Positions 1 to 64,000 of a stretch of 64,000 bases of DNA are shown one piece after another. Every line of letters starts with the position of its first letter. Within the stretch, counting starts at the first letter, position 1. The stretch is taken from the NCBI GenBank assembly GCA_000092065.1, contig CP000593.1. One strand, given 5' to 3'. The stretch is from Ostreococcus lucimarinus (lineage: Eukaryota). A program made the translations under genes and the position numbers. The notes under the pieces were generated by a model, which worked only from the letters and a program-made list of their open reading frames with translations, ran no database searches and had not been told where the DNA came from.

Positions 1-1078
1 CCCACTTCTTTCGCAAATCGTCGTCGAGCGTGCGATACACGCCGTGATCAAGCAGCACAATGCCTCCCTTATCTGTAATCAAGATGTTCCCCGGGTGCGG
101 ATCAGCGTGCACGAATCCGTGCACAAAAGTCATTTGCGCGAATATTTTCTGTATTCTCGCCGCGACGTCGGCTAAATCGATCCCCTTGCCTTTGAGCGCC
201 TCGACGTCGTCTATTCTCACCCCGGGCACAAACTCCATCGTGAGCACTCGCTTACCGCTCAAATGTCTGTGCACGCGCGGTATCTTCAACTCACTCTCGT
301 CGAACTCATCCGCGAGCATCTTGCTCGCCTTGAGCGCGTTCGCTGCCTCGCGAGTAAAATCCATCTCCTCTCCCATGTGCCTTCGCGTCTCCTTTGCCAG
401 CCACCCAAATCGCAACGACGGCACGAGCCATTCCATGAGCGAGTAATACCCTTCTATCGTAAAAAGATCGCTCTCCAGGAACCTCGCCACCGGTCGCTGC
501 TGAATCTTCACCGCGACATCTTCCCCCCCGAACGTTTTCGCTCGATACACCTGCGCCAACGACGCCGACGCCACCGGCGTCTCGTCGAACTCCGCGAACG
601 CCTCTTCGATTTCCAACCCGGTTTCCTCCGCGAACGTCTTTCGATCCTCCTCAAACGGCCGTCGCGCCGCGTCGTCCATCAGCGCTCGCAGCACGATTTG
701 AAAAGGTTTCGGCGCGATCGGCTGCGCCGCCAGGTGTTGCCCAGCCTTGACGTATATCCCTCCCAGCGCCCGCGCGCACGCCAAAAATCGCTCGCTCACC
801 GCGCGCCACAAAATTTGTCTCGACGCCCGTCGCTCGTCCTCGCTCGCGCTCGCCCCGAGCGCGCGCACCCGCGCGCGGTGTTCGCGATAATCGATCGCGT
901 ACATCGGCACGAAGTGCGTCGACGCCACGGCGAAGCGCCGCGCGGACGTCACCGCGCGATCGACGTCGTCGACGAGGCGTCCCGGCGTCGGCGTCGACGT
1001 CGACGTCGCGACGTGCGCGAGCGCGGCGCCGCACGCGAGCGCGGGCGCGAGGGCGCGCAACGCCGGCGCGCGCGCCAT
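1..1078 (-). CDS. ABC1/UbiB-family atypical kinase (ADCK-like); C-terminal part lies beyond the window start
   Basis: Absent from the ORF track because it has no stop inside the window. Hand translation of the minus strand from ATG 1078-1076 (an in-frame TGA lies about 70 nt upstream) gives MARAPALRAL...GIYVKAGQHLAAQP...ASLAQVYRAKTFGGEDVAVKIQQRP...EMDFTREAANALK...RVLTMEFVPGVRIDD...FVHGFVHADPHPGNILITDKGGIVLLDHGVY. This is the ABC1 domain with its HADPHPGN signature. Confidence 0.85.
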   Translation of the reverse strand, partial: MARAPALRALAPALACGAALAHVATSTSTPTPGRLVDDVDRAVTSARRFAVASTHFVPMYAIDYREHRARVRALGASASEDERRASRQILWRAVSERFLACARALGGIYVKAGQHLAAQPIAPKPFQIVLRALMDDAARRPFEEDRKTFAEETGLEIEEAFAEFDETPVASASLAQVYRAKTFGGEDVAVKIQQRPVARFLESDLFTIEGYYSLMEWLVPSLRFGWLAKETRRHMGEEMDFTREAANALKASKMLADEFDESELKIPRVHRHLSGKRVLTMEFVPGVRIDDVEALKGKGIDLADVAARIQKIFAQMTFVHGFVHADPHPGNILITDKGGIVLLDHGVYRTLDDDLRKKW

Positions 1079-1168
1079 GCCGAGCGCGCCGCGTCGCGTC
1101 CGCGCGCGCGAGTGCGGTCCGACGGGCGGACGAGGCGACGACCGTCACGTCGCGACGCGTCGCGCGGG

Positions 1169-2224
1169 ATGCGAGGCCGCGCGCGCGCGGTCGCGGCGCG
1201 ATCGGCGCGTCTGATCGCGCGCGATGCGCGACGGCGCGCGGTCGTCTCGCGCGCGAGCGGTGATGGGCGCGAGGCGCTCGTGCCGCGCGCGCGCGAGGGA
1301 GCGACGGCGCTCGCGACGCTGAGCATGGCGAGCTACTGGCGCTTCGGACAGCGCGGATACTTCGACGCGGACGCGCGAGAGGCGGAGTTAGACTTCGCGA
1401 CGCCGCTTGGATTCGAACCGCTGATAGGAGACGGGCGAGCGCTGCGGCGAGCGACGCTGGAGGCGTTTCCAAAGCTGAAGCGACTGTCGTGGAACGACGG
1501 CGGCGAGGCGACGACGCGCGCGGGGGTGTTCGCGACGAGCGATGAGGAGTGGGTGGTGGTGGTTTTCAGAGGTACGACGCCGAGCCCGCTGAGAGGGTTG
1601 ATTCGAGAGTCGCAGATCAACGGTAGGGCGGGGCAGGTGAAGATGAAGGAAGGACGCGCGCACGCGGGATACGCGCGGGCGTACGAGGCGTTACGAGACG
1701 AGATCGAGACGACGGTGCGCGATGAACTAGAGCGTGGACGCGGAAAGAAAGTCGTCGTCACGGGACACTCGTTGGGGGGGGCGCTGACGACGCTGTGCGC
1801 GGCGTCATTGGCGGAGGCGCACGCCGACGTCGAGGTGGAGGCTGTGACATTCGGACAACCGCGCGTGGGCGACAAAGCCTTCGCGCGTTACCTCGATCAA
1901 GGGTTGACAAATTTGAATTACGCCCGCATCGTGCACGGCGGCGATTTATTCGCTCGCGTGCCAACGAGCGGTTATTGGTTGCCGTCCGCAAATGACGGGA
2001 AATTTGCCGTCGAGTACGCGCACGCGGGTTCGATGCTCTGGACGAATTCAAACTCAGGCGGCGGTCACACGTACGTCGCCAAGGGCGAAGAAGAACCCGA
2101 AGAGTTTTCTCGCGACGTGCGCATGCTGAATCCAATCACGGTGGCGAACCATCACAGCGGGTACGCGCGTTTCTTCGAGGACTCGACCATCGCCGACGCG
2201 TGGCCGAAGGCTGGTCTACTCTGA
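1169..2224 (+). CDS. class 3 (GxSxG) lipase / triacylglycerol-lipase-like protein
   Basis: Downstream third of ORF 263..2224. Conserved core: VVVVFRGT...KVVVTGHSLGGALTTLCA (nucleophile elbow)...VTFGQPRVGD...HHSGY. ATG 1169 is the first ATG that does not overlap the neighbouring ABC1 gene and opens an Arg/Ala-rich presequence-like 52 aa. The conservative alternative start is ATG 1325 (MASYWRF). Confidence 0.75.
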   Translation: MRGRARAVAARSARLIARDARRRAVVSRASGDGREALVPRAREGATALATLSMASYWRFGQRGYFDADAREAELDFATPLGFEPLIGDGRALRRATLEAFPKLKRLSWNDGGEATTRAGVFATSDEEWVVVVFRGTTPSPLRGLIRESQINGRAGQVKMKEGRAHAGYARAYEALRDEIETTVRDELERGRGKKVVVTGHSLGGALTTLCAASLAEAHADVEVEAVTFGQPRVGDKAFARYLDQGLTNLNYARIVHGGDLFARVPTSGYWLPSANDGKFAVEYAHAGSMLWTNSNSGGGHTYVAKGEEEPEEFSRDVRMLNPITVANHHSGYARFFEDSTIADAWPKAGLL

Positions 2225-2429
2225 GACGCGACATCTAGCGCGCTTGGAATCGCACAGTAGCGCATCGTTGTATTTCATTGTTGTATTTTATGAAATTTTA
2301 TGAATTGATCGCGCGATTCGCGCGCGCCTTCGCGCCGATCGTCCGCCCGCTCTTCGCCTTGCGCGCGCCTTCGCGTCTCGCGAGCGCGAGCTCGCTCGTT
2401 ATCCAAGCCTCACACACGCGCTCGACGCG

Positions 2430-3110
2430 ATGTCCGCGCGCTCTTTCGCGTCCACCGCGCGACCGCACGTCGCGGTGCGATCCAAAGCCCCGTCGCGCAC
2501 CGTCGCCGTTCGCCGCCTCGCCGCGATTCCGTGCACGGCGAGCGCGTCGTCGTCGTCCGAAGACGACGCGCGCCACGTCACCAAGCGTGGTCGTCGACCG
2601 CTCATCGTGCTCCCGCTCGCCGGCGCCGCGCTCGCGGCCTCCGCGCCGAGCGGCGACGCGAAGGCGAACGGTGAATTCGTCACCGACGCCCAGCTCGCCG
2701 TGCTCGAGCGACGGGGACCGATCGCGTTCACGGAGGATGAGTGGAAGAACAAGCTGGAACCGTTCTCGTACAAGGTGCTGCGGAAAGAGGCGACGGAGCG
2801 ACCGTTTTCGAGCGAGTTGAACTCGGAGAAACGAACTGGACGGTTCGTGTGCGCTGGGTGTGGAACGCCGCTGTTCGACTCGAAGGCGAAGTACGATTCG
2901 GGGACGGGTTGGCCGAGCTTTTACGAGCCGCTCGCGGGCGCGGTGATGGAGGTTCCGGATTACTCCATCATGTTCTTACCGCGCTCGGAGGTGCGATGCA
3001 CGGCGTGCCAAGGGCACCTTGGGCATGTGTTCGAAGATGGGCCGCCGCCAACGGGCTTGCGATACTGCATGAACGGTGCGGCGATGAAATTTGAGCCGGC
3101 GTCGGCGTAA
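2430..3110 (+). CDS. MSRB: methionine-R-sulfoxide reductase B (SelR/MsrB) with organellar-type presequence
   Basis: ATG verified at 2430. The C-terminal ~130 aa carry two CxxC pairs (CAGCGTPLF, CTACQGHLGHVF), GWPSF and the catalytic RYCMNG motif. The catalytic residue is Cys (TGC), not Sec. The N-terminal ~90 aa are Ser/Ala/Arg-rich. Confidence 0.9.
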   Translation: MSARSFASTARPHVAVRSKAPSRTVAVRRLAAIPCTASASSSSEDDARHVTKRGRRPLIVLPLAGAALAASAPSGDAKANGEFVTDAQLAVLERRGPIAFTEDEWKNKLEPFSYKVLRKEATERPFSSELNSEKRTGRFVCAGCGTPLFDSKAKYDSGTGWPSFYEPLAGAVMEVPDYSIMFLPRSEVRCTACQGHLGHVFEDGPPPTGLRYCMNGAAMKFEPASA

Positions 3111-3128
3111 AAAATATTGCACGATATG

Positions 3129-5726
3129 CTAGAAATTTGTAGTGTCGGAAACCGCACAGTTTTGTTCGTCGATCCACTTAAACCAACTTCGCCACATCTC
3201 ATTGTTTGACAAAGTTTTGCGATTTCCGAGGACGATCAATCCACGTTTCGCTCGCGTGATTCCCACGTTGAGCCGGCGCGGGTCGGCGACGAAGCCGATG
3301 TCTCCAGACGGGTTGCTTCGCACGGTGCACAAAACGATCACTTCCTTTTCTCTGCCTTGGAATCCATCAACGGAACGTATTTCGAGCTCCTCTATTTTAT
3401 CCTCTTCGGTGTAGTCCAAGTAATTTCGTTTCGGACTTCCTCCTACGCCGTATTCTTCTTGCAACCGTCGAACTTGCGCGGCGTACGGCGAGATGACGCC
3501 GATGTCCCCGGGTCCCGCTAAATCGCCCGCCGCGAGAAGTTTTCTCACCACACCGATGGCCATCTTCGCTTCTCCGACGTTATACAGACTGTTTCCATCG
3601 GGTGCTCGCGATTCAGGGGCGGAGATTTCTACGAAGGCTACTGGAACGTTCGGCGACGGCCAAGCGATACCCGGCACCAACGGACGATCTTGCGGCGTCG
3701 GTACCGATCCTACTTTCCCTTTGTAAAACGCCAGAGACGGAAATTCGGCGATTTGCGGATGCATGCGGTACTGCATGTCTAGCAAAGACACCTTCACCCC
3801 GAGCCTCTCCATGCGCTCAAAGATTGAAACTTGTAAGCCAGCGTCGACGGCGTCACGAGACACCACCGTGGGAGGCAATTGCTTGGAATCACCCACGAGC
3901 ACGGCGCTCAAGGCTTTCGTGAGAGAGATTAACGCTCCTGGTTCGGTGCATTGTGTCGCCTCATCCACGACAGCCACTGGGAACGTGAAGTCCTCCAGTA
4001 ACTCGTCGCCTGCGCCGACGCATGTGGTGCACACGACATCCACAGACTTTAATATGCTCTTCGCAGCCGTCAGTTCCAACTGCGTCGCTTGCTTGCGCTG
4101 GCGAGCAAACGCTGGACCAGATTGTCCTCGGATAGCTTCACGCATGGCCGCCGCTTGACGCCCGAGAGGGTGCAACGCGATTTGAGCATCCAGCGTGAGT
4201 TGCTGAAGCCAAGGTTGCACCTTTGCGGGCGCTCCCACGCGCACGACTCGCAGCGGTCGTCCATCGACGATGAAAGATTCTTTTGCCAGTCCTTCGAGGA
4301 TATTATCCACGGCTACGTTCGACGCAGCGGAAGCGAGAACGATCGGACCCCTTCCTCGCCTCTTTTGGATGGACGCCAGGTGTACGGCAGCACCGATGTA
4401 CGCTATGAGCGTGCGAGTCTTACCCGTACCGGGCGGACCTTGCCAAACCGCGAGCGAAGAGCTTAGCGCGCTTTTCACGGCGACGCGCTGGCTTGGGTTC
4501 AACGGCTCTCGCACTTCCTTCAACGCCATCGCGAGTTGCGGCTTTTGCGCCTTGCCCGCCCAATGCGGCGGCGTCGCCGCCAATTCCTCCAGCGTTCCGT
4601 TTTCATCGGGCACGCCGAGCAAGGCGCGCTGCAAAGTTGCGTACGCCGTGGAAGAACTGTTCTTATCGCTCGCGCGCGTGGACATGGAAGACGCGCCGGA
4701 CATGCCTCCCGGTTCAGAAAATGCGACGAGCGCCGCGAGCGAGCGATCGTGGGCCACCGTGTTCGCGCTCAAATCCACCCTCCATCTCGAGCCTTCGGAC
4801 ACGAGTCGAGAGAGATCATCCTCGTGAATGGCGACGGTGATGAAAAACATCGACCTCAGCGCGACGACGCCCGTGATTCCACCCGCGGCTTCGTGGTCGT
4901 CGCCTTCGCTGAGCTGTACCATGTCTCCAGTCGTGAAGCGATGATACGGCAACTCTTGTCCGAGCGGATTCGCCTCGCTCGCGTCCTTGTAAGGAATCGT
5001 CAAACGCACGAGCGAATCTCGCTGAAGCGTTCCTTCGTACTTCGCGCGCACGCCTAAAATCGCGTATCCCTCCGCGACGAGCCGCTCTCGCGGCCACGTG
5101 TTCAATCGCTCCTCCGCGAGCGCCATCTCTTCCTCGAGCTCGCACTTCAAACCTTTCGCAAACCTCTCCCTGTGCGCGGCGTACCCCAATCGCAGCGCCG
5201 CTCGATTACTCCCTCTCGATCTCGACGACGACGACGCGGACGAAGACGCGTTCCTCGCGTCTCCGTCGAGCAAGTGCGCGTACCGCGCGCCCCCGCTCTC
5301 GCCGCCCGTCGCCCCCAACCGCGCCCACATCTTTTCCCGTTCCTCCGCCGCCTTCCTCGGATCTCTCGCCCCCGCCTTACTGTACCCGATCGTCTTCTCC
5401 GCCCTCTCCGGCGTCGCCGTCAAGTCCCTCACCCTCGTCCGTCGCCGCGCCGGCGCCGCGCGCGTCCCCTCTCCTCCCCTCGTCGTCGCGTCGCCGCGTC
5501 CCGTTCCCTCCACCTTTCGTCGCGCGCGCGCCGCCCGACGTCGCTCGCCCCTCGCGCTCGCGCTCTCCGTCCTCGTCGCCTCCGTCCCGTCGTCGCCATC
5601 GCGCGCGTCGTCGCCCGTCCGTCGTCGTCGTCCCGTCGCCGCGACGCGACCGCCCCGTCCCTTCCCGCGCGCCGTCGTCGTCGCGACGCCGCGACGCGCG
5701 CCATCGCGCGACGCCGCGACGCGCAT
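3129..5726 (-). CDS. UPF1-like superfamily-1 helicase (DNA2/NAM7 family, IGHMBP2/SMUBP-2-like)
   Basis: ATG verified at 5726-5724. Motifs: Walker A GPPGTGKT, motif II VVDEATQ, SVDGFQGREKEVIVLCTVRSN, RRLNVGITRAKRG. The region upstream of the helicase core (LVAEGYAILGV...FTTGDMVQL...GVVA) resembles the IGHMBP2 barrel domain. The first ~190 aa are low complexity, so the true start may be internal. Confidence 0.8.
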   Translation of the reverse strand: MRVAASRDGARRGVATTTARGKGRGGRVAATGRRRRTGDDARDGDDGTEATRTESASARGERRRAARARRKVEGTGRGDATTRGGEGTRAAPARRRTRVRDLTATPERAEKTIGYSKAGARDPRKAAEEREKMWARLGATGGESGGARYAHLLDGDARNASSSASSSSRSRGSNRAALRLGYAAHRERFAKGLKCELEEEMALAEERLNTWPRERLVAEGYAILGVRAKYEGTLQRDSLVRLTIPYKDASEANPLGQELPYHRFTTGDMVQLSEGDDHEAAGGITGVVALRSMFFITVAIHEDDLSRLVSEGSRWRVDLSANTVAHDRSLAALVAFSEPGGMSGASSMSTRASDKNSSSTAYATLQRALLGVPDENGTLEELAATPPHWAGKAQKPQLAMALKEVREPLNPSQRVAVKSALSSSLAVWQGPPGTGKTRTLIAYIGAAVHLASIQKRRGRGPIVLASAASNVAVDNILEGLAKESFIVDGRPLRVVRVGAPAKVQPWLQQLTLDAQIALHPLGRQAAAMREAIRGQSGPAFARQRKQATQLELTAAKSILKSVDVVCTTCVGAGDELLEDFTFPVAVVDEATQCTEPGALISLTKALSAVLVGDSKQLPPTVVSRDAVDAGLQVSIFERMERLGVKVSLLDMQYRMHPQIAEFPSLAFYKGKVGSVPTPQDRPLVPGIAWPSPNVPVAFVEISAPESRAPDGNSLYNVGEAKMAIGVVRKLLAAGDLAGPGDIGVISPYAAQVRRLQEEYGVGGSPKRNYLDYTEEDKIEELEIRSVDGFQGREKEVIVLCTVRSNPSGDIGFVADPRRLNVGITRAKRGLIVLGNRKTLSNNEMWRSWFKWIDEQNCAVSDTTNF

Positions 5727-5968
5727 GTCGGCTTGTTCGCTTCGTTCGCGCGTCGCGTCGCGCGCTCGCGCCGACGCGTCTCGCCGCGCGCGTCGACGCG
5801 CCGAGCTGTCGCCGGCGGATTCGAATCGGATTTGAATCCGTGTTGTGAACGAGTCTCGAATGCGTGACGGTCCGTGTGTGAGAACACCGACACGAAACCG
5901 AACCGACGGCGACCCGCGCGACGGCGACGGAGCGCGACGCGCGAGCGACGGCGACGGCGCGACGCGCG

Positions 5969-7066
5969 ATGATGCTGACCGCGACGACGACGACGACGAC
6001 GACGACGGTGCGGTGCGCGCGCGCGAGACGGACGCCGACGACGACGGGCGCGGGACGGGGACGCGCGCGGTTGACCTCGCGCGCGCGCGCGACGGGACGC
6101 GCGACGCGCGCGCTGGGACGCGAAACGACGCGCGAGCGCGCGAGCGGGACGCGGGATGGACGCGACGCGGCGCGGAGAGGCGCGAACGGGCGCGCGAGGG
6201 CGACGAGGGATGGGATGGAGGGCGACGCGCGCGAGGACGACGCGCGCGAGGGTCTCGCGCGCGAGGACGCGCGGGAAAAACGCGGTCGGGCGCTCGGGGC
6301 GTGCGCGATGGTGGCGTGCGCGGTGGCGGTGACGGCGATGGTGATGCCGGAGAGCGCGCTCGCGGCGAAAGCGGCGGCGGTGGCGTCGTCGAGCGAGGGC
6401 TTGTTGGCCAAGGCGTTGTCGTGGGTGATGCACTTGGACAAACACCTCGCCGAGTTGTTCGTGAGTCAGGGGATGTTTGCGTACGGGATCTTGTTCGCGA
6501 TCATCTTCGCCGAGACTGGGTTCGTGGTGACGCCGTTCTTGCCGGGGGACTCTCTGCTGTTCGCCACCGGCGCGCTCGGCGCGCTGGGCGTGGTGAACTT
6601 TCCGTTGACGTGCGCTCTGCTCTTCGCCGCGGCGACGCTCGGGGACACGGTGAACTACTCCATCGGCTCTTACGTCGGTGCGAATTTCATGGAGACGCAT
6701 CCGAAAATCTTTCCTCCTGAATATATCGCGAAAACACGAAAGTTTTACGATCAGTACGGTGGTAAGACGGTGGTCCTCGCGCGCTTCTTCGTAATCGTGC
6801 GCACGTTTGCGCCGTTCGTCGCCGGCGTGGCAAACATGAACTATTCCAAGTTCATCACGTACAACGTTGTGGGTGCCGCGTTATGGATCGCGAGTTTCAT
6901 GGGACTGGGTTACTTTTTCGGCGCCATTCCCGCGGTGCAGGAGAACTTTGCCCTCGCCGTTGCCGGCATCGTCGTTCTCTCGCTCGTGCCCGTCATCGTA
7001 GAAATTATTCAACACGCCACGGGCAGTAAAGGGGACGAGAGCGAGACCGCCCCGGCCGCGACGTAA
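5969..7066 (+). CDS. DedA/VTT-domain (SNARE-associated, TVP38-like) membrane protein with presequence
   Basis: ATG verified at 5969. Conserved block: YGILFAIIFAETGFVVTPFLPGDSLLFATGAL...GDTVNYSIGSYVG...YGGKTVVLARFFVIVRTFAPFVAGVANM, plus C-terminal TM helices. The N-terminus is MMLTA(T)8VR, followed by about 130 aa rich in Arg/Ala/Asp. Confidence 0.8.
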   Translation: MMLTATTTTTTTTVRCARARRTPTTTGAGRGRARLTSRARATGRATRALGRETTRERASGTRDGRDAARRGANGRARATRDGMEGDAREDDAREGLAREDAREKRGRALGACAMVACAVAVTAMVMPESALAAKAAAVASSSEGLLAKALSWVMHLDKHLAELFVSQGMFAYGILFAIIFAETGFVVTPFLPGDSLLFATGALGALGVVNFPLTCALLFAAATLGDTVNYSIGSYVGANFMETHPKIFPPEYIAKTRKFYDQYGGKTVVLARFFVIVRTFAPFVAGVANMNYSKFITYNVVGAALWIASFMGLGYFFGAIPAVQENFALAVAGIVVLSLVPVIVEIIQHATGSKGDESETAPAAT

Positions 7067-7160: not shown

Positions 7161-7877
7161 ATGGCGTCTCTCGCGCGCGTAACCCCTCTCCTCCCATCGC
7201 TCTCGCGAGCGCACGCCCGTCGACGCGCGTCGACGATTAGAGCATCCTCGAGCGGCCCGAACGAAGGGCAGAGTGGGTACCTTCCCGGAACGATGGCGTC
7301 GGCGGAAGAGATTCTCATGCAAGTCATCGACCGAAGAGAGTTCAAGCCCACGAGCGAAGAGTGCCCGTTCTGTCGCGAAGCGCGCGTGAAAGAGAACGGG
7401 TCGAAGTGCTTGGGGATCTGTCGAAACCCGCAAAACGTGCCGGGGCCTCTGGTGTACCCGCACGCGATGCAAACGTGGGAAGACGCGGTTGATTGTATAT
7501 TGTGGGCGATGAGAGACATATCGACGCCGCGAACCGACCACGGCGTTCAAGTGATGTGGGAGTACGCCGTGGAGCACGGAAATATGGAACGCTCGCGATT
7601 CTTTGGGTTTTCGAGTGATATGTATCACTTTGACCATTTCATCGGCAAGGCTTTGAACACTTACGACGCCTTCGTGAGGAACACTGGGCACGAAATCACG
7701 CAAGTGTCGACTATGGAAGACGGCCGAACAAGAGTTGATGTTCGAGTGAAGGATAGGGTAGGAGAGGAGACCGAATGGATTTTCATCATGGTGCGTAGGA
7801 CGTTTGGGAAATACGAGGGCTGCATCCAGGCTCATCGGATCGTGCGCGCGGATTTTCCGCACCTCGGCGATATTTAG
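7161..7877 (+). CDS. conserved hypothetical protein (Cys-rich segment plus possible NTF2-like/DUF4864-like domain)
   Basis: ORF 7098..7877 begins at TTG; the first ATG is 7161 (MASLARVTPLL, presequence-like). Amino-acid composition is balanced. Features: CPFCREARVKENGSKCLGIC, then ...VQVMWEYAVEHGNMERSRFFGFSSDMYHFDHFIGKALNTYDAFV...WIFIMVRRTFGKYEGC. The family assignment is from memory only. Confidence 0.55.
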   Translation: MASLARVTPLLPSLSRAHARRRASTIRASSSGPNEGQSGYLPGTMASAEEILMQVIDRREFKPTSEECPFCREARVKENGSKCLGICRNPQNVPGPLVYPHAMQTWEDAVDCILWAMRDISTPRTDHGVQVMWEYAVEHGNMERSRFFGFSSDMYHFDHFIGKALNTYDAFVRNTGHEITQVSTMEDGRTRVDVRVKDRVGEETEWIFIMVRRTFGKYEGCIQAHRIVRADFPHLGDI

Positions 7878-7898
7878 GCCTTGTCATATCATAATCCT

Positions 7899-9293: not shown

Positions 9294-10169
9294 ATGGCGC
9301 GCGATCCGCGCGGGTTAGATCTGTTACTGCGCGCCGCGCGCACGGCGACGGAGGCGCGAGCGAGGGATAGGGATGAGACGGTGAAGAAGAGCACGACGGT
9401 TCGATTTCAAACCGCCGACGCGACGGGACGAGTCGAGGCGAAGACGAGACGACAGGGCAAAGCGCGAGCCGATGGGGCGATGCGGGACAGGACGAACGAT
9501 TTTGAACGAGGCGGGACGGCGGGTAAAGGGAAGAGAGGACGCGGGCGAGCGACGATGACGATGAAGGCGAAGGCGAACGCGCCGCCGCCAGACGTCGACG
9601 ACTCGGCCGAGGCGACGACGGTGCGCGAGGAAACGTTAGCGATCGGGGCGGAGACGTTGGCGAGGGAACACGCCGATGTGGTGATTGAACGTGTGCGGCA
9701 GTGGTTAGATGTGATGATGAGCGATGCGCGCGGGCGGTTAACGGCGCTCGAACGGAGCCAAACGAGGACGCATCGCGCGCTGGAAAAATACGACTCAGAG
9801 GAAGCACAGGACGACGTCGGGATCGAGATGCTGGTCGAGTTCGATAAGACATTGGAAATCGAGCGCAGCATCCTGGAGGAGACGATGAAGAATTTGGAGG
9901 CGATGCGCACGAAGGTTGAGTTTGAGAGCGCGAATTTGGCACTTCGGTGGTTACGCCGCTCAAATTGTGGAGGCGATGACGACGGCCAGGCGAGCGAGGA
10001 AGATCAAGCGACGGATGGACGCAAGTATTTTTATTCCTCGAGTGCGTACGCATTTCTTCAAACCGCCATCGGTGCGTTCATGAACGACACCACGCCCGCA
10101 AAGTCGGCAAAGAGCGCCGATGCGCACTCGCCGAGCGGCGTTCTAGACGCCGCGCGACTCTTTACGTGA
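9294..10169 (+). CDS. hypothetical coiled-coil protein
   Basis: ATG verified at 9294. From about 9600 onward the ORF has balanced, Glu/Leu-rich composition (VIERVRQWLDVMMSDARGRLTALERSQ...LEIERSILEETMKNLEAMRTKVEFE). The overlapping minus-strand ORFs are Ser/Pro/Arg low complexity. I recognise no family, and the start is uncertain. Confidence 0.5.
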   Translation: MARDPRGLDLLLRAARTATEARARDRDETVKKSTTVRFQTADATGRVEAKTRRQGKARADGAMRDRTNDFERGGTAGKGKRGRGRATMTMKAKANAPPPDVDDSAEATTVREETLAIGAETLAREHADVVIERVRQWLDVMMSDARGRLTALERSQTRTHRALEKYDSEEAQDDVGIEMLVEFDKTLEIERSILEETMKNLEAMRTKVEFESANLALRWLRRSNCGGDDDGQASEEDQATDGRKYFYSSSAYAFLQTAIGAFMNDTTPAKSAKSADAHSPSGVLDAARLFT

Positions 10170-11446: not shown

Positions 11447-11503
11447 CTGTGTTTCATAGAATTCTTTCCATGTATGTAATGTACAAATTGTGTTGCTATC
11501 GCG

Positions 11504-56912: not shown

Positions 56913-58190
56913 ATGGCGACGGCGACGACGACGACGACGGCGCGCGCGATGCCGTCGCGATGGCGCGCGCGCGCGACGACGCGAACGAACGCGAGGGCGA
57001 ACGCGAGGGCGAGCGCGGCGGCGGACGAGCGGTACGCGATGCGCGGCGTGAGCGCGTCCAAGGAGGACGTGCACGCGGCGATAAAGAAGGTGGACAAGGG
57101 ATTGTTCCCGAAGGCGTTCTGTAAGATCGTGGAGGACATCGCTGGGGACGAGGCGTACTGCACGTGCATGCACGCGGACGGCGCGGGGACGAAGACGAGC
57201 CTGGCGTACGCGTACTGGAGAGAGACGGGAGATTTGGGAGTGTGGCGAGGAATCGCGCAGGATTCGATCGTGATGAACACGGATGATTTGTTGTGCGTCG
57301 GGTGCGTGGATAACATATTCGTCTCGAGCACGATCGGGAGGAATAAGGCTTTGATTCCGGGGGAGGTGCTGAGCGCGCTCATCAACGGGACGGAGGAGGT
57401 TTTGGAGACTTTGCGCGAGTGTGGGGTCGGGGTGAAGTCCACGGGAGGTGAAACCGCGGATTTGGGTGATTTAGTGCGCACGGTGGTGGTGGACACCACG
57501 GTCACGGCGCGCATGCGAAGAGACGCGGTGGTGAGTAACGACAACATTCGCGCCGGAGACGTCGTCGTCGGTTTGGCGTCGTTCGGTCAAGCGACGTACG
57601 AGAGCGAGTACAACGGCGGAATGGGAAGCAACGGATTGACGTCTGCTCGACACGACGTGTTTGCGAAGAATTTGGCGGAAAAATATCCGGAAACGTTCGA
57701 TCCGAACGTACCCGAATCGTTGGTGTACAGCGGCAAGTATCAGCTCACCGACGTCGAGCCGGAAACCGGCGTGACGGTTGGCAAGTTGGTGCTCAGTCCG
57801 ACGCGAACGTACGCCCCCGTGGTGAAAGCCGTGCTCGATGCCATGGACGTGAGGGATATTCACGGCATGGTGCACTGCAGCGGCGGCGCGCAGTCCAAGG
57901 TTGGACACTTTCTCCTCGACGGCTTGCGCGTCGTCAAGGATAACATGTTCCCCATTCCCCCGCTCTTCCGCTTGATCCAGGAGTGCTCCAACACCGAATG
58001 GAGCGAGATGTACAAAGTGTTCAACTGCGGACATCGTCTCGAGTTTTACTGCTCCCCCGAACACGCGCAAAAGATTATCGATATTAGCCAGAGCTTTAAC
58101 ATCGACGCCCGCGTCGTCGGCAGAGTCGAAGCCAAGGATGGCAAGTCTGAAGTCGTGGTGAAGAGTGAATACGGTGAGTTTACGTATTAA
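56913..58190 (+). CDS. PurM-like (AIR synthase-related) protein of the non-canonical type, with presequence
   Basis: ATG verified at 56913. RYAMRGVSASKEDVHAAIKKVDKGLFPKAFCKIVEDIAGDEAYCTCMHADGAGTKTSLAYAYWRETGDLGVWRGIAQDSIVMNTDDLLCVG, plus a C-terminal PurM-type domain. From memory it resembles the Bacteroidetes-style PurM rather than classical plant PurM. Confidence 0.75.
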   Translation: MATATTTTTARAMPSRWRARATTRTNARANARASAAADERYAMRGVSASKEDVHAAIKKVDKGLFPKAFCKIVEDIAGDEAYCTCMHADGAGTKTSLAYAYWRETGDLGVWRGIAQDSIVMNTDDLLCVGCVDNIFVSSTIGRNKALIPGEVLSALINGTEEVLETLRECGVGVKSTGGETADLGDLVRTVVVDTTVTARMRRDAVVSNDNIRAGDVVVGLASFGQATYESEYNGGMGSNGLTSARHDVFAKNLAEKYPETFDPNVPESLVYSGKYQLTDVEPETGVTVGKLVLSPTRTYAPVVKAVLDAMDVRDIHGMVHCSGGAQSKVGHFLLDGLRVVKDNMFPIPPLFRLIQECSNTEWSEMYKVFNCGHRLEFYCSPEHAQKIIDISQSFNIDARVVGRVEAKDGKSEVVVKSEYGEFTY

Positions 58191-58212
58191 TACGTAATAT
58201 AAAATCAAAAAT

Positions 58213-58932
58213 CTAAACCACCCCTTGTTTCGTCGTCCCCGTCGGGCGATCCTGCTTGCCCTCGGCGATTTCCTTTGCCTTGCGCGCGTCGCGCCGCGCT
58301 CGCAACTCTTCGATGCTCACCCCTCGAAGCTCGCGCCTGTAAAACAACAACCAATTCGCCACCTGCGCTCGACGCGTCATGTTCGGCGTCAACCCTTCCA
58401 TCTTAAACCCTTTCCATCCCAACGGCGTGAGCGTCGTCTTAATCCCTTGCTTGTGTTCCTCCGGCACCGACCGCGTCAACGCCGCGCACGCCACCTTCAC
58501 CGGCGCGTCAATCTTCGGATCGTACTTCCTCGTCACCCCGATCACGTCCGGTGGTTCGGGATAACTTTTCGCCCAATTCGGAAACACCTCATCCGGCGTC
58601 CACACCTCGTTCGCCGTGAGCGTCTCCGCGTCCAGCTCCACGCGCGAGCGATAGCCCAGCGCGTTCCACACCAGCCGGTTCACCTCCTCATCCGCGAGCT
58701 CCGAGCGCACGATCGACAGCAGCACCTCGTTCGACAGCGGGTCCGCCCCATCGCGCGCGTCGTCCCACGGCTTCGCGCCCCACTCGTCCTCACCAGCGCG
58801 CGTCTCGACGCGTCTTCGTCCCGAGGGCGTTCGCACCGCGGCGGCGCGTCGCGGCGTCGCGCGTCGCGTCGTCGTCGCGTCGCGCGTCGCGCGTCGCAGC
58901 GTCGTCGCGGACGTCGTCGTCGAGCTCGCCAT
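58213..58932 (-). CDS. conserved cyanobacterial/green-lineage protein (DUF1823-like, name from memory), presequence-bearing
   Basis: The first non-overlapping ATG is 58932-58930 (MASSTTTSATTLRRATRD). Conserved-looking core: LSNEVLLSIVRSELADEEVNRLVWNALGYR...VFPNWAKSYPEPPDVIGV...GFKMEGLTPNMTRRAQVANWLLFY. The longer ORF reaching 59307 overlaps the LMBR1-like gene. Confidence 0.65.
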   Translation of the reverse strand: MASSTTTSATTLRRATRDATTTRRATPRRAAAVRTPSGRRRVETRAGEDEWGAKPWDDARDGADPLSNEVLLSIVRSELADEEVNRLVWNALGYRSRVELDAETLTANEVWTPDEVFPNWAKSYPEPPDVIGVTRKYDPKIDAPVKVACAALTRSVPEEHKQGIKTTLTPLGWKGFKMEGLTPNMTRRAQVANWLLFYRRELRGVSIEELRARRDARKAKEIAEGKQDRPTGTTKQGVV

Positions 58933-59062
58933 CGCGCGTCGTCGCTCGCGCGCGTCGTCGTCGAGCGGGCGCGTCGAGGTGTCCCGAGCCGTCCCGGCGC
59001 CGTCGCGACGCCGTCCGCACACGCGCGCGCGCGTCCGCGAGCGCACGTCGCGCGCTCGAGCG

Positions 59063-61150
59063 ATGGAGTGGACGACGCGCGACGTCGCCGCGGACCCGCG
59101 CGCGACGCGCGCGCGCTGGACGCGCTCGGCGGCGGAAACATCGTCCGGGAGCGGTGCGGACGATGGATTCTTCGCGTCGTGGTCGACGCCCGTGTTCGTC
59201 GTCGCGGCGTGCGTCGCGGCGCTCGCCGTGGCGCGATTCGCCGATCGTCGGGTCGGCGCGGCCGTGCGCGCGCACTGTTTCGTCGCGTGGACGCTGGCGC
59301 TGATCATGGTGGGGATCGTGCCGACGGATGTGACGGCGACGCTGCGCGCGGGAGAGGCGCCGCGCGGGTTGGACGCGACGTGGGACGTCGCGTACTGGAG
59401 TACGTACGCGCTGACGTGGATCGTGCTGCCGCTGCACCAGTGTTACGTGGACGCGGCGGATTTTTCGTCCGTGGGACGATTGAAGAGAGCGGCGCGGGAG
59501 AACGCGATGTTTTTGGGAATCGCGGCGACGGCGATGTTCGTGGGCGCGGCGGCGCTGTTGGCGACCGAGTCGCTGTCTTTGGACGCGATGCGCGCGTATG
59601 GGATCGTGGTGGCGAACGTGTGGGGTATTTCGACCGGGGTTTTACTCATGGGGTTTGGTTTGGTGGACGTGCCGCGGGCGATTTGGCGGCGAGCGGCGTT
59701 TAATAATCGTCTCACGCGGTCGTACAAGCGCGTCGCCGGAGTGTCGCGGGCGCTCGGTAACGCTCACGCGCGCTTGGCACGGCAAGTTGTGGCGGTAACG
59801 ACGACGAGTCGAGTGATGCCACGGCGACATAGTTTGCGTTGGGCGATGAGCGTCATCGAAAACGAGACGCCAGAGTTCTCAGAAATGCACCGAGGAAGCT
59901 TAGATGAAGCGTTGGACGCGACAGAGGAAGACGTGCTGGATTACGATTACGATGAGTTGAACGATTTAGTTGCGCTGCGTCGCGCGGTTCGCCGTTCGCT
60001 GAGGCAGTACGATCGCACTAAGGCGCAGTACGTGATAGCGGTGAAGGATGCGTTTGAAGCGGAAGCCGCCGAGCAATCGCGGGCATCGTCAACTCGACGA
60101 TTGCATCGCCCGCCAAACTCGGTATCTCGTAGCGGCTCGCTCGGAAAGTGTATGGATGATGTGCAGTACACGTGGTCGATCGTCATCGTGCCCGTCCTCT
60201 TGAGAGTCATCGCCACTGGTTTGGCCTTTTTTTCGGTATCCATCATCATCGCAGAGAGCAGTATTTGGATCGGGAAACTGTGGGAAGAGGCGGATCAGAT
60301 ATCTCTTTTGAGCGTGATGCTGGAAAACGCTGAAGATTCGACATCGGGTTTGACCTCCATGCACGTCGTCGTGGCGTTTCCGCTCGCTTACATGTGCCTT
60401 TGCACGTTTCATTCCCTCCACAAGCTGGGCATGTTTTCGTTTTACACGCTCGTGCCTCGACACACGGATGCGTTTTCGCTCTTGGTGAACGCGAGTCTGG
60501 TATGCCGTTACTCAGCGCCGCTGAGTTTCAACTTTCTCATGCTTTTGCCCATTATTCGCGCGAGTGGCAAGATGACAACCTTCTCACGGAAGATGGCCAA
60601 CAACGTCCCAGAGCTCGCGGGTGAGCTGAACATCATCGTGCCCACGTTTTTGGGCTTGTACTGCGTCGCCATCGCCCTCGGCTGGTTCGACCGCATCGCA
60701 CGCGTACTCAACGTGGAGGGGTTTAAATTCGATAGCGACAAAGACGTGAATGAGAGCACGGAAACTGGAAAGTCAATCGTAGACAGGGAACGCGCCGAAG
60801 TCATGGACGGCGCCGAAATCGGAAGCTCGCACGAATCTTTCGTCTCTGAGACTGCGCCTCGCGAGCAAAGGCTTCCGCCAATTGCTTCGAATAGTAACGA
60901 GTGGAACGACGTCGAGCACGACGCTCGAGGAGGTCTGCTATCGACCTATCCCGATCCGGAATCCGCGAGCGCACGGTGGGAGACGCAAAAAGCCCGTCTC
61001 GCCCAAGCCACGCAAGCGAGCGCCGCAAGAGCCGTACCGCGCGGGTCGCCGCTCTCGCGAACTGGTCGAGACAAAGTGAGCGAACTCGACTTCATGTTCT
61101 CGAACCTCGGTCGCCGCAGCAGCGGCGGTGAATCGTTCTCGGATGAATGA
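59063..61150 (+). CDS. LMBR1-domain (LIMR family, LMBD2-like) multipass membrane protein
   Basis: ORF 58979 begins at GTG; the first ATG is 59063. WDVAYWSTYALTWIVLPLHQCYVDAADFSSVGRLKRAARENAMF is the typical LMBR1 N-terminal block. There are about 9 TM segments separated by a long coiled loop. Confidence 0.72.
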   Translation: MEWTTRDVAADPRATRARWTRSAAETSSGSGADDGFFASWSTPVFVVAACVAALAVARFADRRVGAAVRAHCFVAWTLALIMVGIVPTDVTATLRAGEAPRGLDATWDVAYWSTYALTWIVLPLHQCYVDAADFSSVGRLKRAARENAMFLGIAATAMFVGAAALLATESLSLDAMRAYGIVVANVWGISTGVLLMGFGLVDVPRAIWRRAAFNNRLTRSYKRVAGVSRALGNAHARLARQVVAVTTTSRVMPRRHSLRWAMSVIENETPEFSEMHRGSLDEALDATEEDVLDYDYDELNDLVALRRAVRRSLRQYDRTKAQYVIAVKDAFEAEAAEQSRASSTRRLHRPPNSVSRSGSLGKCMDDVQYTWSIVIVPVLLRVIATGLAFFSVSIIIAESSIWIGKLWEEADQISLLSVMLENAEDSTSGLTSMHVVVAFPLAYMCLCTFHSLHKLGMFSFYTLVPRHTDAFSLLVNASLVCRYSAPLSFNFLMLLPIIRASGKMTTFSRKMANNVPELAGELNIIVPTFLGLYCVAIALGWFDRIARVLNVEGFKFDSDKDVNESTETGKSIVDRERAEVMDGAEIGSSHESFVSETAPREQRLPPIASNSNEWNDVEHDARGGLLSTYPDPESASARWETQKARLAQATQASAARAVPRGSPLSRTGRDKVSELDFMFSNLGRRSSGGESFSDE

Positions 61151-61208: not shown

Positions 61209-61856
61209 CTACTCCTCCGGCAACAGCGCCAGCGCGTGCCCATCGACGCACACCGTCCCACACTTCACTTTCCGCACCACCGTCTCGTACCGCGCCCTCG
61301 TTCCCGATCGTTTCACCAATTTCAACTCAATCTCCAGCTCCTCGTCCACGCGCACCGGTTCCCTGAATTTCAACTCTTGGCTCGCGTACACCGTCCCCGG
61401 CCTCGCGCGCGCCAGCAGCGCCCCGAACGCGCTCGCCGCCAGCATTCCGTGCACCGCGCGTCCTCGCAATCGATTCTCGCCGTCACCCACCGCGCCGTCG
61501 TCGAAGTGAATCGGATTCTCATCGCCCGTCAACCGCGCGAACGCCGCGCAATCGTCCGCCGTGAACGTCCTGCGCTCGCGCAGCGCGTCCGCGCGCGTCG
61601 ACGACGTCGCGGACATCCCGCGCCGCGCCGCGGACGACCGCGCGAGCGCGCGCGCGACGATTCGCGCGCGCATCACCGTCGGTCGCGCGACACAGCGCCG
61701 CGCGCCGGCGTCTGCGGCGTCGCGCGATGTCCGCGTCGGTCGACGCGCGCGCGCGCGCGCCGACGACGCGGTGGACATCGCGCGCGACGACGCGCGCGGC
61801 GACGAACGGCGCGGCGCGCGCGCGGCGAAGGAGTCGCGAGGGAATCGCGCGGGCAT
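61209..61856 (-). CDS. MaoC-like hot-dog-fold dehydratase (R-specific enoyl-CoA hydratase / HTD2-like)
   Basis: ATG verified at 61856-61854. RTFTADDCAAFARLTGDENPIHFDD...RAVHGMLAASAFGALLA...GTVYASQELKFREPVRVDEELEIELKL. A long Arg/Ala/Ser presequence means internal ATGs are alternative starts. Confidence 0.75.
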   Translation of the reverse strand: MPARFPRDSFAARAPRRSSPRASSRAMSTASSARARARRPTRTSRDAADAGARRCVARPTVMRARIVARALARSSAARRGMSATSSTRADALRERRTFTADDCAAFARLTGDENPIHFDDGAVGDGENRLRGRAVHGMLAASAFGALLARARPGTVYASQELKFREPVRVDEELEIELKLVKRSGTRARYETVVRKVKCGTVCVDGHALALLPEE

Positions 61857-61936
61857 TCAATTCCGGCGGCGGCTCGACGACGCGCCGCGGACGCGCGCTT
61901 CGCGTCGCTCGACGCGGTGCGGACGCGGACGACGCT

Positions 61937-62737
61937 ATGATGGACGACGACGACGACGACGACGCGAGCGCGAGCGCGTCGGGACGCGCGGCCGAGGACG
62001 CGCGGTGGCTGGACGAGGACGAGGCGCGACGCGCGCGAGGGGCGACGGCGTCGGCGTCGACGCGACAACGGCGAGCGGCGCGAAGGGAACCGCGAGAGCG
62101 ACGAAACGAGCGACGGGATCGAGGTGGAGCGCGACCGAACGTGCTGGTGCTGACGCAGCGGGATTACGAACGCGTGCTGCCCATCGCGGCGACGGGGGAG
62201 CAATACGGGTACTTTTGGGGGGATAACGATACCGCGTTTCAACGCGTGGGGTTGTCGCTGTTGACGACGGTGTTGACCGCGAATGCGGCGCCGGCGCTCG
62301 CCGTGCCCGCGAGCACGTTTTTTTTGTGGGCACCCGTGGCGTTAGCGGCGCGACGTAACTCAAAGGTGCGAAGCGCTAAATACGCGGGCCTGTGGCGCGC
62401 CAGAGTCATCTCAGTCGAGCCCGTGGAGACGCGCGGGACGTCGAGCGTAGATTGGATGTTTAACCTAGTCGTCGGAGATAGATCCGGGGCGCGAGTACCG
62501 CTGAAAGTTCCTTTAAAAGCGGAGTACGCGGATATCAACGTAGGCGACGACGTCGAGCTCATCGTGACATCAGACGACCCGTACTTTTACACGTTTCAAG
62601 CCGTTCGCGAGGCGTATTTTCCGTTCCTTAACGTCTGGGTGGGCGAGTATCCGTTCCTCGACCGTCGTGGGATGGTGAGCGTGAGCGATCGTTTAGCCGG
62701 GGAAGAGGAGGCGCGTCGCGCCAGGGCGAGAGGATAA
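61937..62737 (+). CDS. hypothetical membrane protein (acidic N-terminus, two hydrophobic segments, conserved-looking C-terminal domain)
   Basis: The in-frame ATG pair at 61937/61940 (MMDDDDDDD) is the first start that does not overlap the MaoC gene. Sequence: ...GEQYGYFWGDNDTAFQRVGLSLLTTVLTANAAPALAVPASTFFLWAPVALAA...VELIVTSDDPYFYTFQAVREAYFPFLNVWVGEYPFLDRRGM. I recognise no family. Confidence 0.55.
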   Translation: MMDDDDDDDASASASGRAAEDARWLDEDEARRARGATASASTRQRRAARREPRERRNERRDRGGARPNVLVLTQRDYERVLPIAATGEQYGYFWGDNDTAFQRVGLSLLTTVLTANAAPALAVPASTFFLWAPVALAARRNSKVRSAKYAGLWRARVISVEPVETRGTSSVDWMFNLVVGDRSGARVPLKVPLKAEYADINVGDDVELIVTSDDPYFYTFQAVREAYFPFLNVWVGEYPFLDRRGMVSVSDRLAGEEEARRARARG

Positions 62738-62778
62738 ACTGATAAAAGCGCCGCACTTACACTGCAATAGAACACTAC

Positions 62779-63427
62779 TCACTTCTCGTCCAATTCGTCC
62801 ATCATCTTCTCCAGCTCGCTCGCCGGCATTTCTTCCAAACGCTTTTGCATCACCGCGTTTTCGTACTGTTTAACCATCGTCGAAACGAAACGTCTGAGCG
62901 TCAGTCTTCGGTTCGCGTTTTCTTTCTCCTTCGCGTTTCGTCTCGCGCTCTCGCCTCGTTCGCTTCGCACGCACATCCTTCAACTGCTTCGCGTAAGTCA
63001 TGTCCTTATTGAACACTCGCATGACGTACGACCCCACCCACGCGAGCGTCAATCCGAGCACGAACGTCAACTGCACCGCGTTGCCCGCCTTCGTCGAATC
63101 CATCCCCGCGAACGATTGCAACCCGTAGTACGCCGCGAATCCCGCGCCCGTGACCCCGGTCCCGATCAGCATCACGTCCGCGCGCGTGTACCCGAACGGC
63201 ACGTCGCCTTCATCGTCCGCGGGCGTCGCGCGCGTGCGCGTGGTCTTCCCGACGCGCGGCGATTCCAGCCTTCGCGTCGTCGTCATCGTCTTCGTCGTCG
63301 CGCGCGCGCGCGTCGCGCTCGACCGCGCGGCCGCGAACACGCCGCGCGCGCGTCGCGTCGTCGCGCGTCGCGTCGTCGCGCATCGCGCCGTCGTCGTCGT
63401 CGCGCGCGTCGTCGTCGCGAACGTCAT
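62779..63427 (-). CDS. DUF3007-like small membrane protein (cyanobacterial/plastid lineage, name from memory), two exons
   Basis: Structure: join(63427..62975, 62865..62779), 179 aa. Splicing joins ...AGNAVQLTFVLGLTLAWVGSYVMRVFNKDMTYAKQLKD to YENAVMQKRLEEMPASELEKMMDELDEK, which lies in another frame (ORF 62779..62976). The presequence is MTFATTTRATTTTARCATTRRATTRRA. Confidence 0.78.
62866..62974 (-). other. spliceosomal intron of the DUF3007-like gene (109 nt)
   Basis: AAGGAT|gtgcgtgcgaagcg...ccgaagactgacgctcagacgtttcgtttcgacgatggttaaacag|TACGAA. The junction is phase 0; exon 1 is 453 nt and exon 2 is 87 nt. Confidence 0.75.
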
Positions 63428-63438
63428 CGTCTCGATCG

Positions 63439-64000
63439 ATGATGCGTCGACGAATGGCGCGACGCCGCAGAGCGCGCCTCGCCGCGGGCGCGATGCGCGC
63501 GACGCCGGCGACGCGCGCGAGCGGGGACTCCGAGCGCGGCGCGCGCGACGCGATCGCCGCCGCCGCCGCCGACGCGTCGGTCCCGACGGTCGATGACGCG
63601 AACGACGACGACGACGCGAACGATGTCGACGCCGACGCCGACGCGCGACGCCGACGCGCGGGCGACGACGCGAACGCGTCTCGAGCGACGCGCGCCTCGA
63701 TGACGCCGGCGCGCGCGCTGTACGCGCGCTTCGTCGCCGTGGGCGTGGGGACGCTGTTCCCGTGGAACGTCTTCATCACCGAGCGCGCGTACTTCGCGCG
63801 ACGGTTCGCGAACGATGGCGCGAACGATGGGTCGTTCTTCGCGGCGAATTTCGAAGGGACGTTCGCGAACGCGTACGCGCTGAGCAATCTGATCGGATGC
63901 GCGGGGTTGGTGAAATATGGGGACGCGCGCGGCGCGGCGACGGGTTCGCGAGCGACGGCGAGCGCGCTGGGAATCGCGGCGGTGGGGATATGGACGTGTG
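63439..64000 (+). CDS. equilibrative nucleoside transporter (ENT/SLC29) family, N-terminal part; continues past the window end
   Basis: Not in the ORF track because there is no stop before position 64000. Hand translation gives ...ALYARFVAVGVGTLFPWNVFITERAYFARRF...GTFANAYALSNLIG, which contains the GxGxLxPWNxFxT motif of ENTs. In-frame ATGs lie at 63439, 63442, 63454, 63493 and 63700, so the start is uncertain. Confidence 0.7.
   Translation, partial: MMRRRMARRRRARLAAGAMRATPATRASGDSERGARDAIAAAAADASVPTVDDANDDDDANDVDADADARRRRAGDDANASRATRASMTPARALYARFVAVGVGTLFPWNVFITERAYFARRFANDGANDGSFFAANFEGTFANAYALSNLIGCAGLVKYGDARGAATGSRATASALGIAAVGIWTC

Follow-up and report, generated by a model that had tools for sequence, protein, structure and literature searches.

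Gene content and orientation along the window

We analyzed a 64,000-nucleotide stretch of contig CP000593.1 from the picoalga Ostreococcus lucimarinus (hereinafter the window), in which neighboring genes lie on opposite strands far more often than expected from random orientation. The strands of its 40 called genes read -++-++-++-+--+-+-+-++-+--++-++-+-+-+-+-+ from left to right, with 31 of the 39 adjacent pairs in opposite orientation (exact one-sided binomial P = 1.5e-4 against 50:50). With the totals of 22 plus-strand and 18 minus-strand genes held fixed, permutation yields a comparable value (P = 1.9e-4). An earlier note on this DNA had reported 40 genes and the same 31 of 39 pairs, a count to which our independent re-calling returned. 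Same-strand runs never exceed two genes in the window, nor three in the 18 further Ostreococcus-like loci discussed below, and long co-directional runs of the operon-like or polycistronic kind are hence absent from both.

The window has a guanine-plus-cytosine (GC) content of 59.8%, contains no Ns and carries about one gene per 1.6 kb. Its high GC gives rise to many spurious open reading frames (ORFs), with 112 of at least 150 amino acids (aa), many of them antisense to real genes; therefore, ORF length was not trusted for gene calling. Genes were called independently of the list in the earlier note by scoring all ORFs with a codon log-likelihood ratio trained on long ORFs, and the 40 resulting candidates were scanned against Pfam and compared with the calls of other pipelines on near-identical metagenome contigs. 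Such contigs, which are up to 531 kb long and include Tara Oceans assemblies, match the window at 99.2-99.4% nucleotide identity, and the strands assigned by independent gene callers on 16 of them agree with ours. In a second Ostreococcus species (87-88% amino-acid identity), gene order and orientation are identical over 20 kb. The asparaginyl-tRNA synthetase (AsnRS) ORF at 34279-36156(-) shares 99% identity with a marine metagenome protein, 88-89% with Ostreococcus lucimarinus-type proteins and 75% with its counterpart in Micromonas commoda. The window is ordinary nuclear DNA of Ostreococcus. Exact-protein look-ups of the 621-aa desaturase ORF, whose start differs from that of the called gene, and of the O. 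lucimarinus AsnRS entry P0096 returned no record.

If long antisense ORFs in 60%-GC DNA were taken for genes, false strand switches would follow, and the abundance of such ORFs makes this concern legitimate. One true mis-call of this kind was encountered: the 653-aa ORF at 263-2224(+) was rejected as the lipase gene, its 5′ part overlapping the ABC1 gene on the other strand, with the lipase starting at about 1169. However, for 33 of the 40 genes the called strand is backed by a Pfam match, in the gene itself or in an annotated orthologue; codon scores distinguish sense from antisense ORFs; other pipelines arrive at the same strands; and our automatic caller yields only 33% switches on bacteria-like loci. 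Pfam-supported genes taken alone switch strand in 27 of 32 pairs; in the earlier note, leaving out five hypothetical genes had given 29 of 34. The hypothetical genes contribute mainly same-strand pairs and therefore do not inflate it. Hence, we regard a gene-calling artefact as already refuted, unless transcripts were to overturn many of the Pfam-supported calls. All spacers in the window are 600 bp or shorter, which leaves little room for overlooked genes, and Rfam detects no RNA genes in the window at the gathering score. An ARAGORN prediction of tRNA-Pro(CGG) at 2512-2587(-), inside the 5′ part of the SelR gene and on the opposite strand, was rejected as probably a false positive in GC-rich DNA, since Rfam finds no tRNA there at its gathering score.

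The genes are described here from left to right and, unless another basis is given, were identified by Pfam matches. The left edge cuts an ABC1-kinase-like gene (1-1078, minus; codon score 98), which continues leftwards and corresponds to a 567-aa PF03109 call at the matching position of contigs L014-L016. It is followed by a class-3 lipase gene (1169-2224, plus; Lipase_3 E = 1.5e-27; called as 351 aa in L014-L016), a SelR/MsrB gene (2430-3110, plus; E = 2.8e-45; exact protein on 24 contigs), an SF1 helicase gene with AAA_11 and AAA_12 domains (3129-5726, minus), a gene for a VTT-domain membrane protein (5969-7066, plus) and a 238-aa hypothetical gene (7161-7877, plus; codon score 29-31; called as 194 aa on the same strand in L014-L016). 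Next come an SBF gene of the bile acid:sodium symporter family (7899-8954, minus), a 291-aa hypothetical gene (9294-10169, plus; codon score 60-69; called at the same length in L014-L016), a CobW-family GTPase gene (10346-11446, plus), an ankyrin-repeat protein gene (11504-12220, minus) and a gene for alpha-glucan water dikinase (12400-16833, plus). Two minus-strand genes, one combining FAD_binding_2 with cytochrome b5 (17046-18809) and the other a BioD-BioA fusion of AAA_26 and Aminotran_3 domains (19052-21655), precede a 258-aa hypothetical gene (21788-22564, plus; codon score 72-80).

The central part begins with a RACK1-like gene of seven WD40 repeats (22713-23735, minus; WD40 E = 2.6e-58; 89% identity to contig L018) and an ADA2 transcriptional adaptor gene (24308-25954, plus). 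An ATG is lacking near the start of the RACK1-like ORF (340 aa), suggesting a short upstream exon. Two minus-strand ORFs (26415-27140 and 27501-27983) probably belong to a single DUF3685 gene (26415-27983) split by an intron or frameshift: besides a weak DUF3685 match, the evidence comprises an undivided 493-aa PF12452 gene in the Bathycoccus-like contig L018 and a tblastn comparison. Together with the RACK1-like ORF, this split gene hints at introns overlooked by ORF-based calling. Further to the right are genes for a rhodanese-domain protein (28278-29312, plus), a cytochrome-b5 fatty-acid desaturase (29432-31297, minus), Staygreen (31893-32507, plus), a Mur ligase of the folylpolyglutamate synthase type (FPGS; 32734-34215, plus) and AsnRS (34279-36156, minus; identified by protein identity to the Ostreococcus-type proteins). 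They are followed by an EAP30/Vps36 gene (36274-37398, plus), an eIF-1A gene (37470-37898, minus; exact protein on many contigs) and a large hypothetical gene of 1056 aa (38338-41508, minus; codon score 184), which is called at that length on L004, L005, L007, L009 and L011 and as 1046-1201 aa on L002, L003, L006 and L010. A 142-aa hypothetical gene (41793-42221, plus; codon score 32-40; called as 142 aa on L004, L005, L009 and L010) and a V-SNARE/Sec20 gene (42743-43378, plus) complete this part.

The remainder comprises genes for a WD40 protein (43609-45387, minus), the TFIIIB subunit BRF1 (45923-48199, plus), a 140-aa hypothetical protein that is the least certain call (48477-48899, plus; codon score of 27-33 only), a P5A-type ATPase (48950-53215, minus), a photolyase/cryptochrome (53310-54926, plus), UDP-glucose dehydrogenase (UGDH; 55012-56367, minus), an AIR-synthase-related protein (AIRS; 56913-58190, plus), a DUF1823 protein (58213-59307, minus), an LMBR1-like membrane protein (59063-61150, plus), a MaoC-like dehydratase (61209-61856, minus), a 336-aa hypothetical protein (61727-62737, plus; codon score 48-54; called as 266-278 aa in L012 and L013) and a DUF3007 protein (62870-63427, minus). 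The final segment (63454-64000, plus; codon score 47-50) was corrected in our calls to the start of a nucleoside transporter gene that continues to the right and has its equivalent in a 511-aa PF01733 gene in the same place on L012.

The natural population is polymorphic at 43379-43608, between the SNARE and WD40 genes, for the presence or absence of a segment of about 4 kb. The segment is absent from the window and from seven other contigs, and is present on four contigs that are about 98-99% identical to the window (L001 1-2650, L002 1793-4400, L009 159-4418 and L010 282-4404). It codes for an OTU-domain protein of 247-378 aa on all four and a rhomboid+TPR protein of 455 aa on L001, L009 and L010, along with proteins of 79 aa and about 340 aa on L002 and L009; other small ORFs were called on L010.

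Length and composition of the three junction classes

The junctions of the window rank by length and contrast in composition. The 15 tail-to-tail spacers have a median of 71 bp (range 18-460 bp) and a mean GC of 0.39; the 16 head-to-head spacers a median of 210 bp (from overlapping ORFs to 595 bp) and a mean GC of 0.71; and the eight same-strand spacers a median of 234 bp (94-521 bp) and a mean GC of 0.59. In the 18 other Ostreococcus-like loci the corresponding medians are 134, 176 and 351 bp, with same-strand spacers exceeding the other two classes (Mann-Whitney P = 1.5e-4), whereas in the window alone the difference between head-to-head and same-strand spacers is not significant (P = 0.39). 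Opposite-strand spacers are, on these figures, shorter than same-strand ones. Were a same-strand spacer simply the mean of the other two classes, about 140-155 bp would be expected, and those observed are 1.7-2.3 times longer.

GC stands at about 0.70 within 300 bp on either side of start codons, at 0.57 before stop codons and at 0.42 just after them. Genes accordingly display a 5′-to-3′ GC gradient, and composition along the window alternates with gene polarity, with GC-rich stretches (e.g., 5727-6050, 12221-12470, 24100-24210, 31298-31892 and 53330-53560) and AT-rich ones (3111-3128, 11447-11503 and 58191-58212). Same-strand spacers are composite, their first, terminator-side third having a GC of 0.52 and their last, promoter-side third 0.67, a profile to be expected where a terminator precedes a promoter. 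(GAC)n, (GTC)n and (CG)n low-complexity DNA is abundant in head-to-head spacers and 5′ coding ends, as exemplified by the 595-bp spacer at 31298-31892 (GC 0.75, with (CG)n and (GAC)n runs); further GC-rich head-to-head spacers lie at 5727-5968 and 45388-45922. A repeat search of the window found no dispersed elements, returning only GC-rich low-complexity runs that cluster at head-to-head junctions and gene 5′ ends.

On ORF boundaries, the start-to-start distance is at most 595 bp in all 16 head-to-head pairs, within the 1 kb used to define bidirectional-promoter pairs. Several ORFs run on through the stop-poor, GC-rich DNA of these junctions and overlap their neighbors on the other strand (263-2224(+) with 1-1078(-), 58213-59307(-) with 59063-61150(+), and 61209-61856(-) with 61727-62737(+)), and at 63427/63454 only 26 bp separate two ATGs. 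The true start codons are probably further downstream than the longest-ORF starts, so that head-to-head spacers are underestimated.

Such short, GC-rich spacers (about 200 bp, some below 100 bp), together with the conservation of some head-to-head pairs across genera (see below), could be read as functional pairing, in which head-to-head genes share bidirectional promoters and are kept together by selection for co-expression. However, the paired genes are functionally unrelated (helicase/VTT, AsnRS/Vps36, P5A-ATPase/photolyase and UGDH/AIRS). Footprinting work on Ostreococcus is summarized in one paper as revealing fewer bidirectional regulatory elements than in yeast (PMC2850359). In Ectocarpus, divergent pairs have a common nucleosome-depleted region, yet their transcript levels are uncorrelated, with r of about 0.04-0.05 (bioRxiv 10.1101/2020.03.09.980763). 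Promoter sharing with co-expression of head-to-head pairs, which the earlier note had entertained, is therefore doubtful, the literature leaning against it, and we hold functional pairing to be improbable and the weakest of the rival mechanisms.

At the other junction type, the shortest spacers are those at 3111-3128 (18 bp, GC 0.28), 7878-7898 (21 bp) and 58191-58212 (22 bp). So little DNA between two stop codons leaves no room for two separate 3′ untranslated regions (UTRs), and hence the 3′ ends of the convergent mRNAs would have to overlap at these sites. In the re-annotation of O. tauri, RNA-seq transcripts were found to be concatenated owing to overlapping UTRs (PMC4378021). The tail-to-tail spacer at 25955-26414, AT-rich (GC 0.43) and unusually long at 460 bp, contains AATTAATT motifs in repetition. 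Neither an ORF with coding signal nor an Rfam match was found in it, and it might harbor long 3′ UTRs or a small RNA that is not annotated. Across the window, the pentamer TGTAA is enriched in sense orientation just downstream of stop codons, with 13 copies in the first 120 nt as against 4.4 in shuffled sequences (e.g., at 11475, 16896, 22596 and 29315). It lies within 60 nt of the stop in 9 of 39 genes and is a candidate poly(A) signal, with most genes being without it. TGTAA is the poly(A) signal of Chlamydomonas.

Orientation bias and conservation beyond the window

The alternation was picked out post hoc in one window, and therefore a proper test needed independent data. As a sample standing in for a genome-wide test, a metagenome collection was scanned with a (GAC)n-containing 19-mer common in window DNA. 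This yielded 120 loci, none overlapping one another or the window, which were classed by the correlation of their tetranucleotide signature with that of the window. Their genes were called with a maximal-scoring-segment caller with trimming and exon merging, which replaced a simpler caller that took the longest ATG ORF and had missed three genes. Applied to the window itself, the automatic caller gave 31/40, i.e., it reproduced the window, and in two random loci 17 of 20 predicted proteins had a Pfam match, the content being green-algal and including chlorophyll a/b-binding and ABA4-like proteins.

Opposite-strand pairs make up 60 of 93 in the 18 Ostreococcus-like loci, a fraction of 0.65 (bootstrap over loci 0.57-0.71; P = 0.003). 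The fraction stays at 0.63-0.65 at three threshold settings, and with the pairs adjoining the probe motif removed it is 0.63 (42/67; P = 0.025). Twelve Bathycoccus-like loci give 0.63 (31/49). Five Micromonas-like loci give 0.47 (14/30), a figure we do not trust, coming as it does from a handful of loci of an intron-richer genome and from an automatic caller trained on Ostreococcus. In the curated NCBI annotation of M. commoda around AsnRS, a single sample of ten pairs, seven pairs switch strand. Bacteria-like control loci have a fraction of 0.33 (27/81), as expected of operons, and the caller therefore does not manufacture alternation. Thus, on this sample of loci, the opposite-strand fraction significantly exceeds 0.5 beyond a single region. 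The excess described in the earlier note extends past the window to the Ostreococcus-like and Bathycoccus-like loci and, in the one curated sample, to the M. commoda pairs.

These figures bear on the proposal that the window is a local chance fluctuation in a genome with a true fraction of about 50%. Apart from its post hoc discovery, the window favors such a view in that its fraction of 0.79 lies above every estimate from the other loci and in the upper tail even at p = 0.65 (P(>=31/39) = 0.038; Fisher test against the loci P = 0.10). Against it stand the independent loci, both with and without the motif-adjacent pairs, the low fraction in the bacteria-like controls and the left flank of the window, where three further pairs all alternate (a 2040-aa gene on the minus strand, ACBP/Ank on the plus and ABC1 on the minus); on the right flank, the next pair is same-strand (nucleoside transporter and NSUN2, both plus). 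In O. tauri, 2288 head-to-head pairs within 1 kb have been counted (PMC4035068). Divergent junctions account for 30% in our 18 loci. With about 7,900 genes, which we take to be the total for O. tauri, its published pairs would amount to about 29% divergent junctions and about 58% strand switches, which also argues against a true fraction of one half. We consider mere chance very improbable. The opposite-strand bias is genome-wide and moderate, at about 0.63-0.65 in our sample of loci, with the window being a strong local instance at 79%. As a general case, the description in the earlier note of essentially a chain of head-to-head and tail-to-tail pairs is overstated.

Gene order has been reshuffled between the genera. 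A Bathycoccus-like contig carries many of the window genes in a different order, with 10 of 12 pairs still switching strand, and in M. commoda many of them likewise lie in rearranged order. Some junctions have survived: the head-to-head desaturase/Staygreen pair (window 29432-32507) is kept in Ostreococcus, M. commoda and the Bathycoccus-like contig, and the head-to-head RACK1/ADA2 pair (22713-25954) and the tail-to-tail FPGS/AsnRS pair (32734-36156) are kept between Ostreococcus and the Bathycoccus-like contig despite the rearrangement around them. The stretches of conserved microsynteny outside the window are L017 1-1892 and L018 5037-8746, 10001-13962 and 17669-21158. Alternation is thus maintained through rearrangement, in a sample of junctions too small to compare the survival of the classes.

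This persistence has a neutral reading, namely that alternation is a by-product of how the chromosomes rearrange. Inversions between like spacers, e.g., two AT-rich tail-to-tail ones, would preserve alternation, as the logic of signed permutations implies that inversions between like junctions retain the junction types, and breaks in promoter-bearing spacers would be lethal, with no selection for compactness or against read-through being called for. The altered gene order with persistent alternation in the Bathycoccus-like and Micromonas loci, and the three gene pairs conserved across genera, agree with it. However, taken alone it leaves the roughly 2-fold longer same-strand spacers unexplained, the conserved junctions are far too few for comparing classes, and it overlaps heavily with the explanation that we favor below, both requiring head-to-head junctions that are hard to break. 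We see it as the most serious of the rivals, albeit on balance unlikely.

A proposed role of compaction and read-through, and comparison with known systems

We propose, with some confidence, that the alternation reflects genome compaction combined with the avoidance of transcriptional read-through. A head-to-head junction places two promoters and two 5′ ends back to back in roughly 200 bp of DNA with a GC of about 0.7, and a tail-to-tail junction is formed of two abutting 3′ ends with a GC of about 0.4, often in less than 100 bp. A same-strand junction would have to accommodate a full terminator and then a full promoter, plus insulation of the downstream promoter from upstream read-through, and would consequently take up more DNA and be difficult to shorten. 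In a genome long pressed towards compaction, an inversion that replaces two same-strand junctions by a head-to-head and a tail-to-tail one may have been retained, since it would both economize on DNA and prevent interference. Breaking a head-to-head junction, where two promoters are packed into about 200 bp, would be difficult without damage. The combined effects could push the equilibrium above 50% alternation, and this would imply neither operon-like co-transcription nor any necessary co-regulation. The earlier note had likewise invoked compaction through shared promoter and terminator regions or selection against tandem read-through. The spacer lengths fit its compaction idea, and terminator overlap is plausible in view of the 18-22 bp stop-to-stop distances and the overlapping UTRs of O. 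tauri; selection against tandem read-through is also plausible.

Several points weigh against this explanation, or against the generality of the bias that it addresses. Spacer lengths depend on ORF and codon-score boundaries, with ORFs over-extending 5′ through GC-rich DNA, and missed small exons or genes could have lengthened the same-strand spacers. The genome-wide figure comes from 93 pairs in metagenome loci that were assigned by tetranucleotide signature and called automatically. The (GAC)n probe tends to lie near gene 5′ ends, although removing the adjacent pairs brings the fraction no lower than the 0.63 given above. The value of 0.47 for the Micromonas-like loci, obtained with a caller untuned for the intron-richer Micromonas, may mean that the bias does not hold equally across the Mamiellophyceae. 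Finally, the present data do not distinguish selection from rearrangement bias, and the variant based on breakpoint bias is inseparable from our explanation here.

More speculatively, the alternation might represent an actively maintained two-gene chromatin unit specific to the Mamiellophyceae, in which GC-rich head-to-head islands take turns with overlapping, AT-rich terminators. Such islands might be free of nucleosomes and perhaps also hotspots of recombination or biased gene conversion; the GC/AT domains, or mutual antisense control of the convergent mRNAs, would be under selection, and some regions such as the window would be held near 80%. We rate this as a long shot next to compaction with read-through avoidance.

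The result is of modest importance in that it confirms, from raw sequence and without recourse to annotation, a picoalgal preference for head-to-head and tail-to-tail packing. It also puts figures on the DNA cost of each junction: a tail-to-tail junction takes about 70-130 bp, a head-to-head one about 180-210 bp and a same-strand one about 230-350 bp. In the annotation of GC-rich compact algal genomes, it offers a strand prior and counsels caution over start codons, because ORFs over-extend through the GC-rich head-to-head spacers. It may further help in picking compact promoter and terminator fragments for Ostreococcus engineering and offers numbers with which to gauge how far transcriptional interference may restrict genome compaction. 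Alternation as such is an already described property of very compact eukaryotic genomes, seen here in a group for which it is said to be typical; in the literature searched, whose primary sources are known to us via secondary citation, we found no genome-wide orientation count for Ostreococcus. The alternation of GC-rich and AT-rich junctions and the junction costs add useful descriptive detail rather than a new system, element or mechanism.

Among known systems, the closest likeness is to the brown algae. According to two reports, the share of alternating pairs in the Ectocarpales may rise above 60%, and divergent genes are set closer together than tandem ones (bioRxiv 10.1101/2024.02.19.579948; 10.1101/2020.03.09.980763). 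The approximately 65% found here, the shorter divergent spacers and the use of a binomial test against 0.5 are all in line with that work. The differences are of scale and composition: spacers are about 10 times shorter here (about 200 bp as against 409 and 2293 bp), tail-to-tail spacers go down to 18 bp, and the junctions alternate sharply between GC-rich and AT-rich. The Ostreococcus genome is more than 10 times smaller than the brown-algal one.

In budding yeast, gene orientation is near random, with about 50% tandem, 25% divergent and 25% convergent pairs. Yeast resembles Ostreococcus in gene density and would also do so in having promoters in shared nucleosome-free regions and convergent genes that end in shared zones, with read-through and interference between close neighbors being a known problem (bioRxiv 10.1101/2022.11.02.514956; PMC4943177). 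It differs in its bidirectional regulatory elements, of which, in the summarized account cited above, Ostreococcus has fewer (PMC2850359). The bidirectional-promoter pairs of mammals and plants likewise have head-to-head genes less than 1 kb apart around a GC- or CpG-rich region (PMC4035068, PMC2648788). However, there they form a minority class in gene-sparse DNA and are often co-regulated, whereas here they are part of the majority arrangement, with equally frequent tail-to-tail junctions. Bacterial operons and the polycistronic units of trypanosomatids represent another tight packing of genes, but one that is co-directional, the opposite of the arrangement in the window, where same-strand runs are as short as described above and strand switches far outnumber the 33% of the bacteria-like loci.

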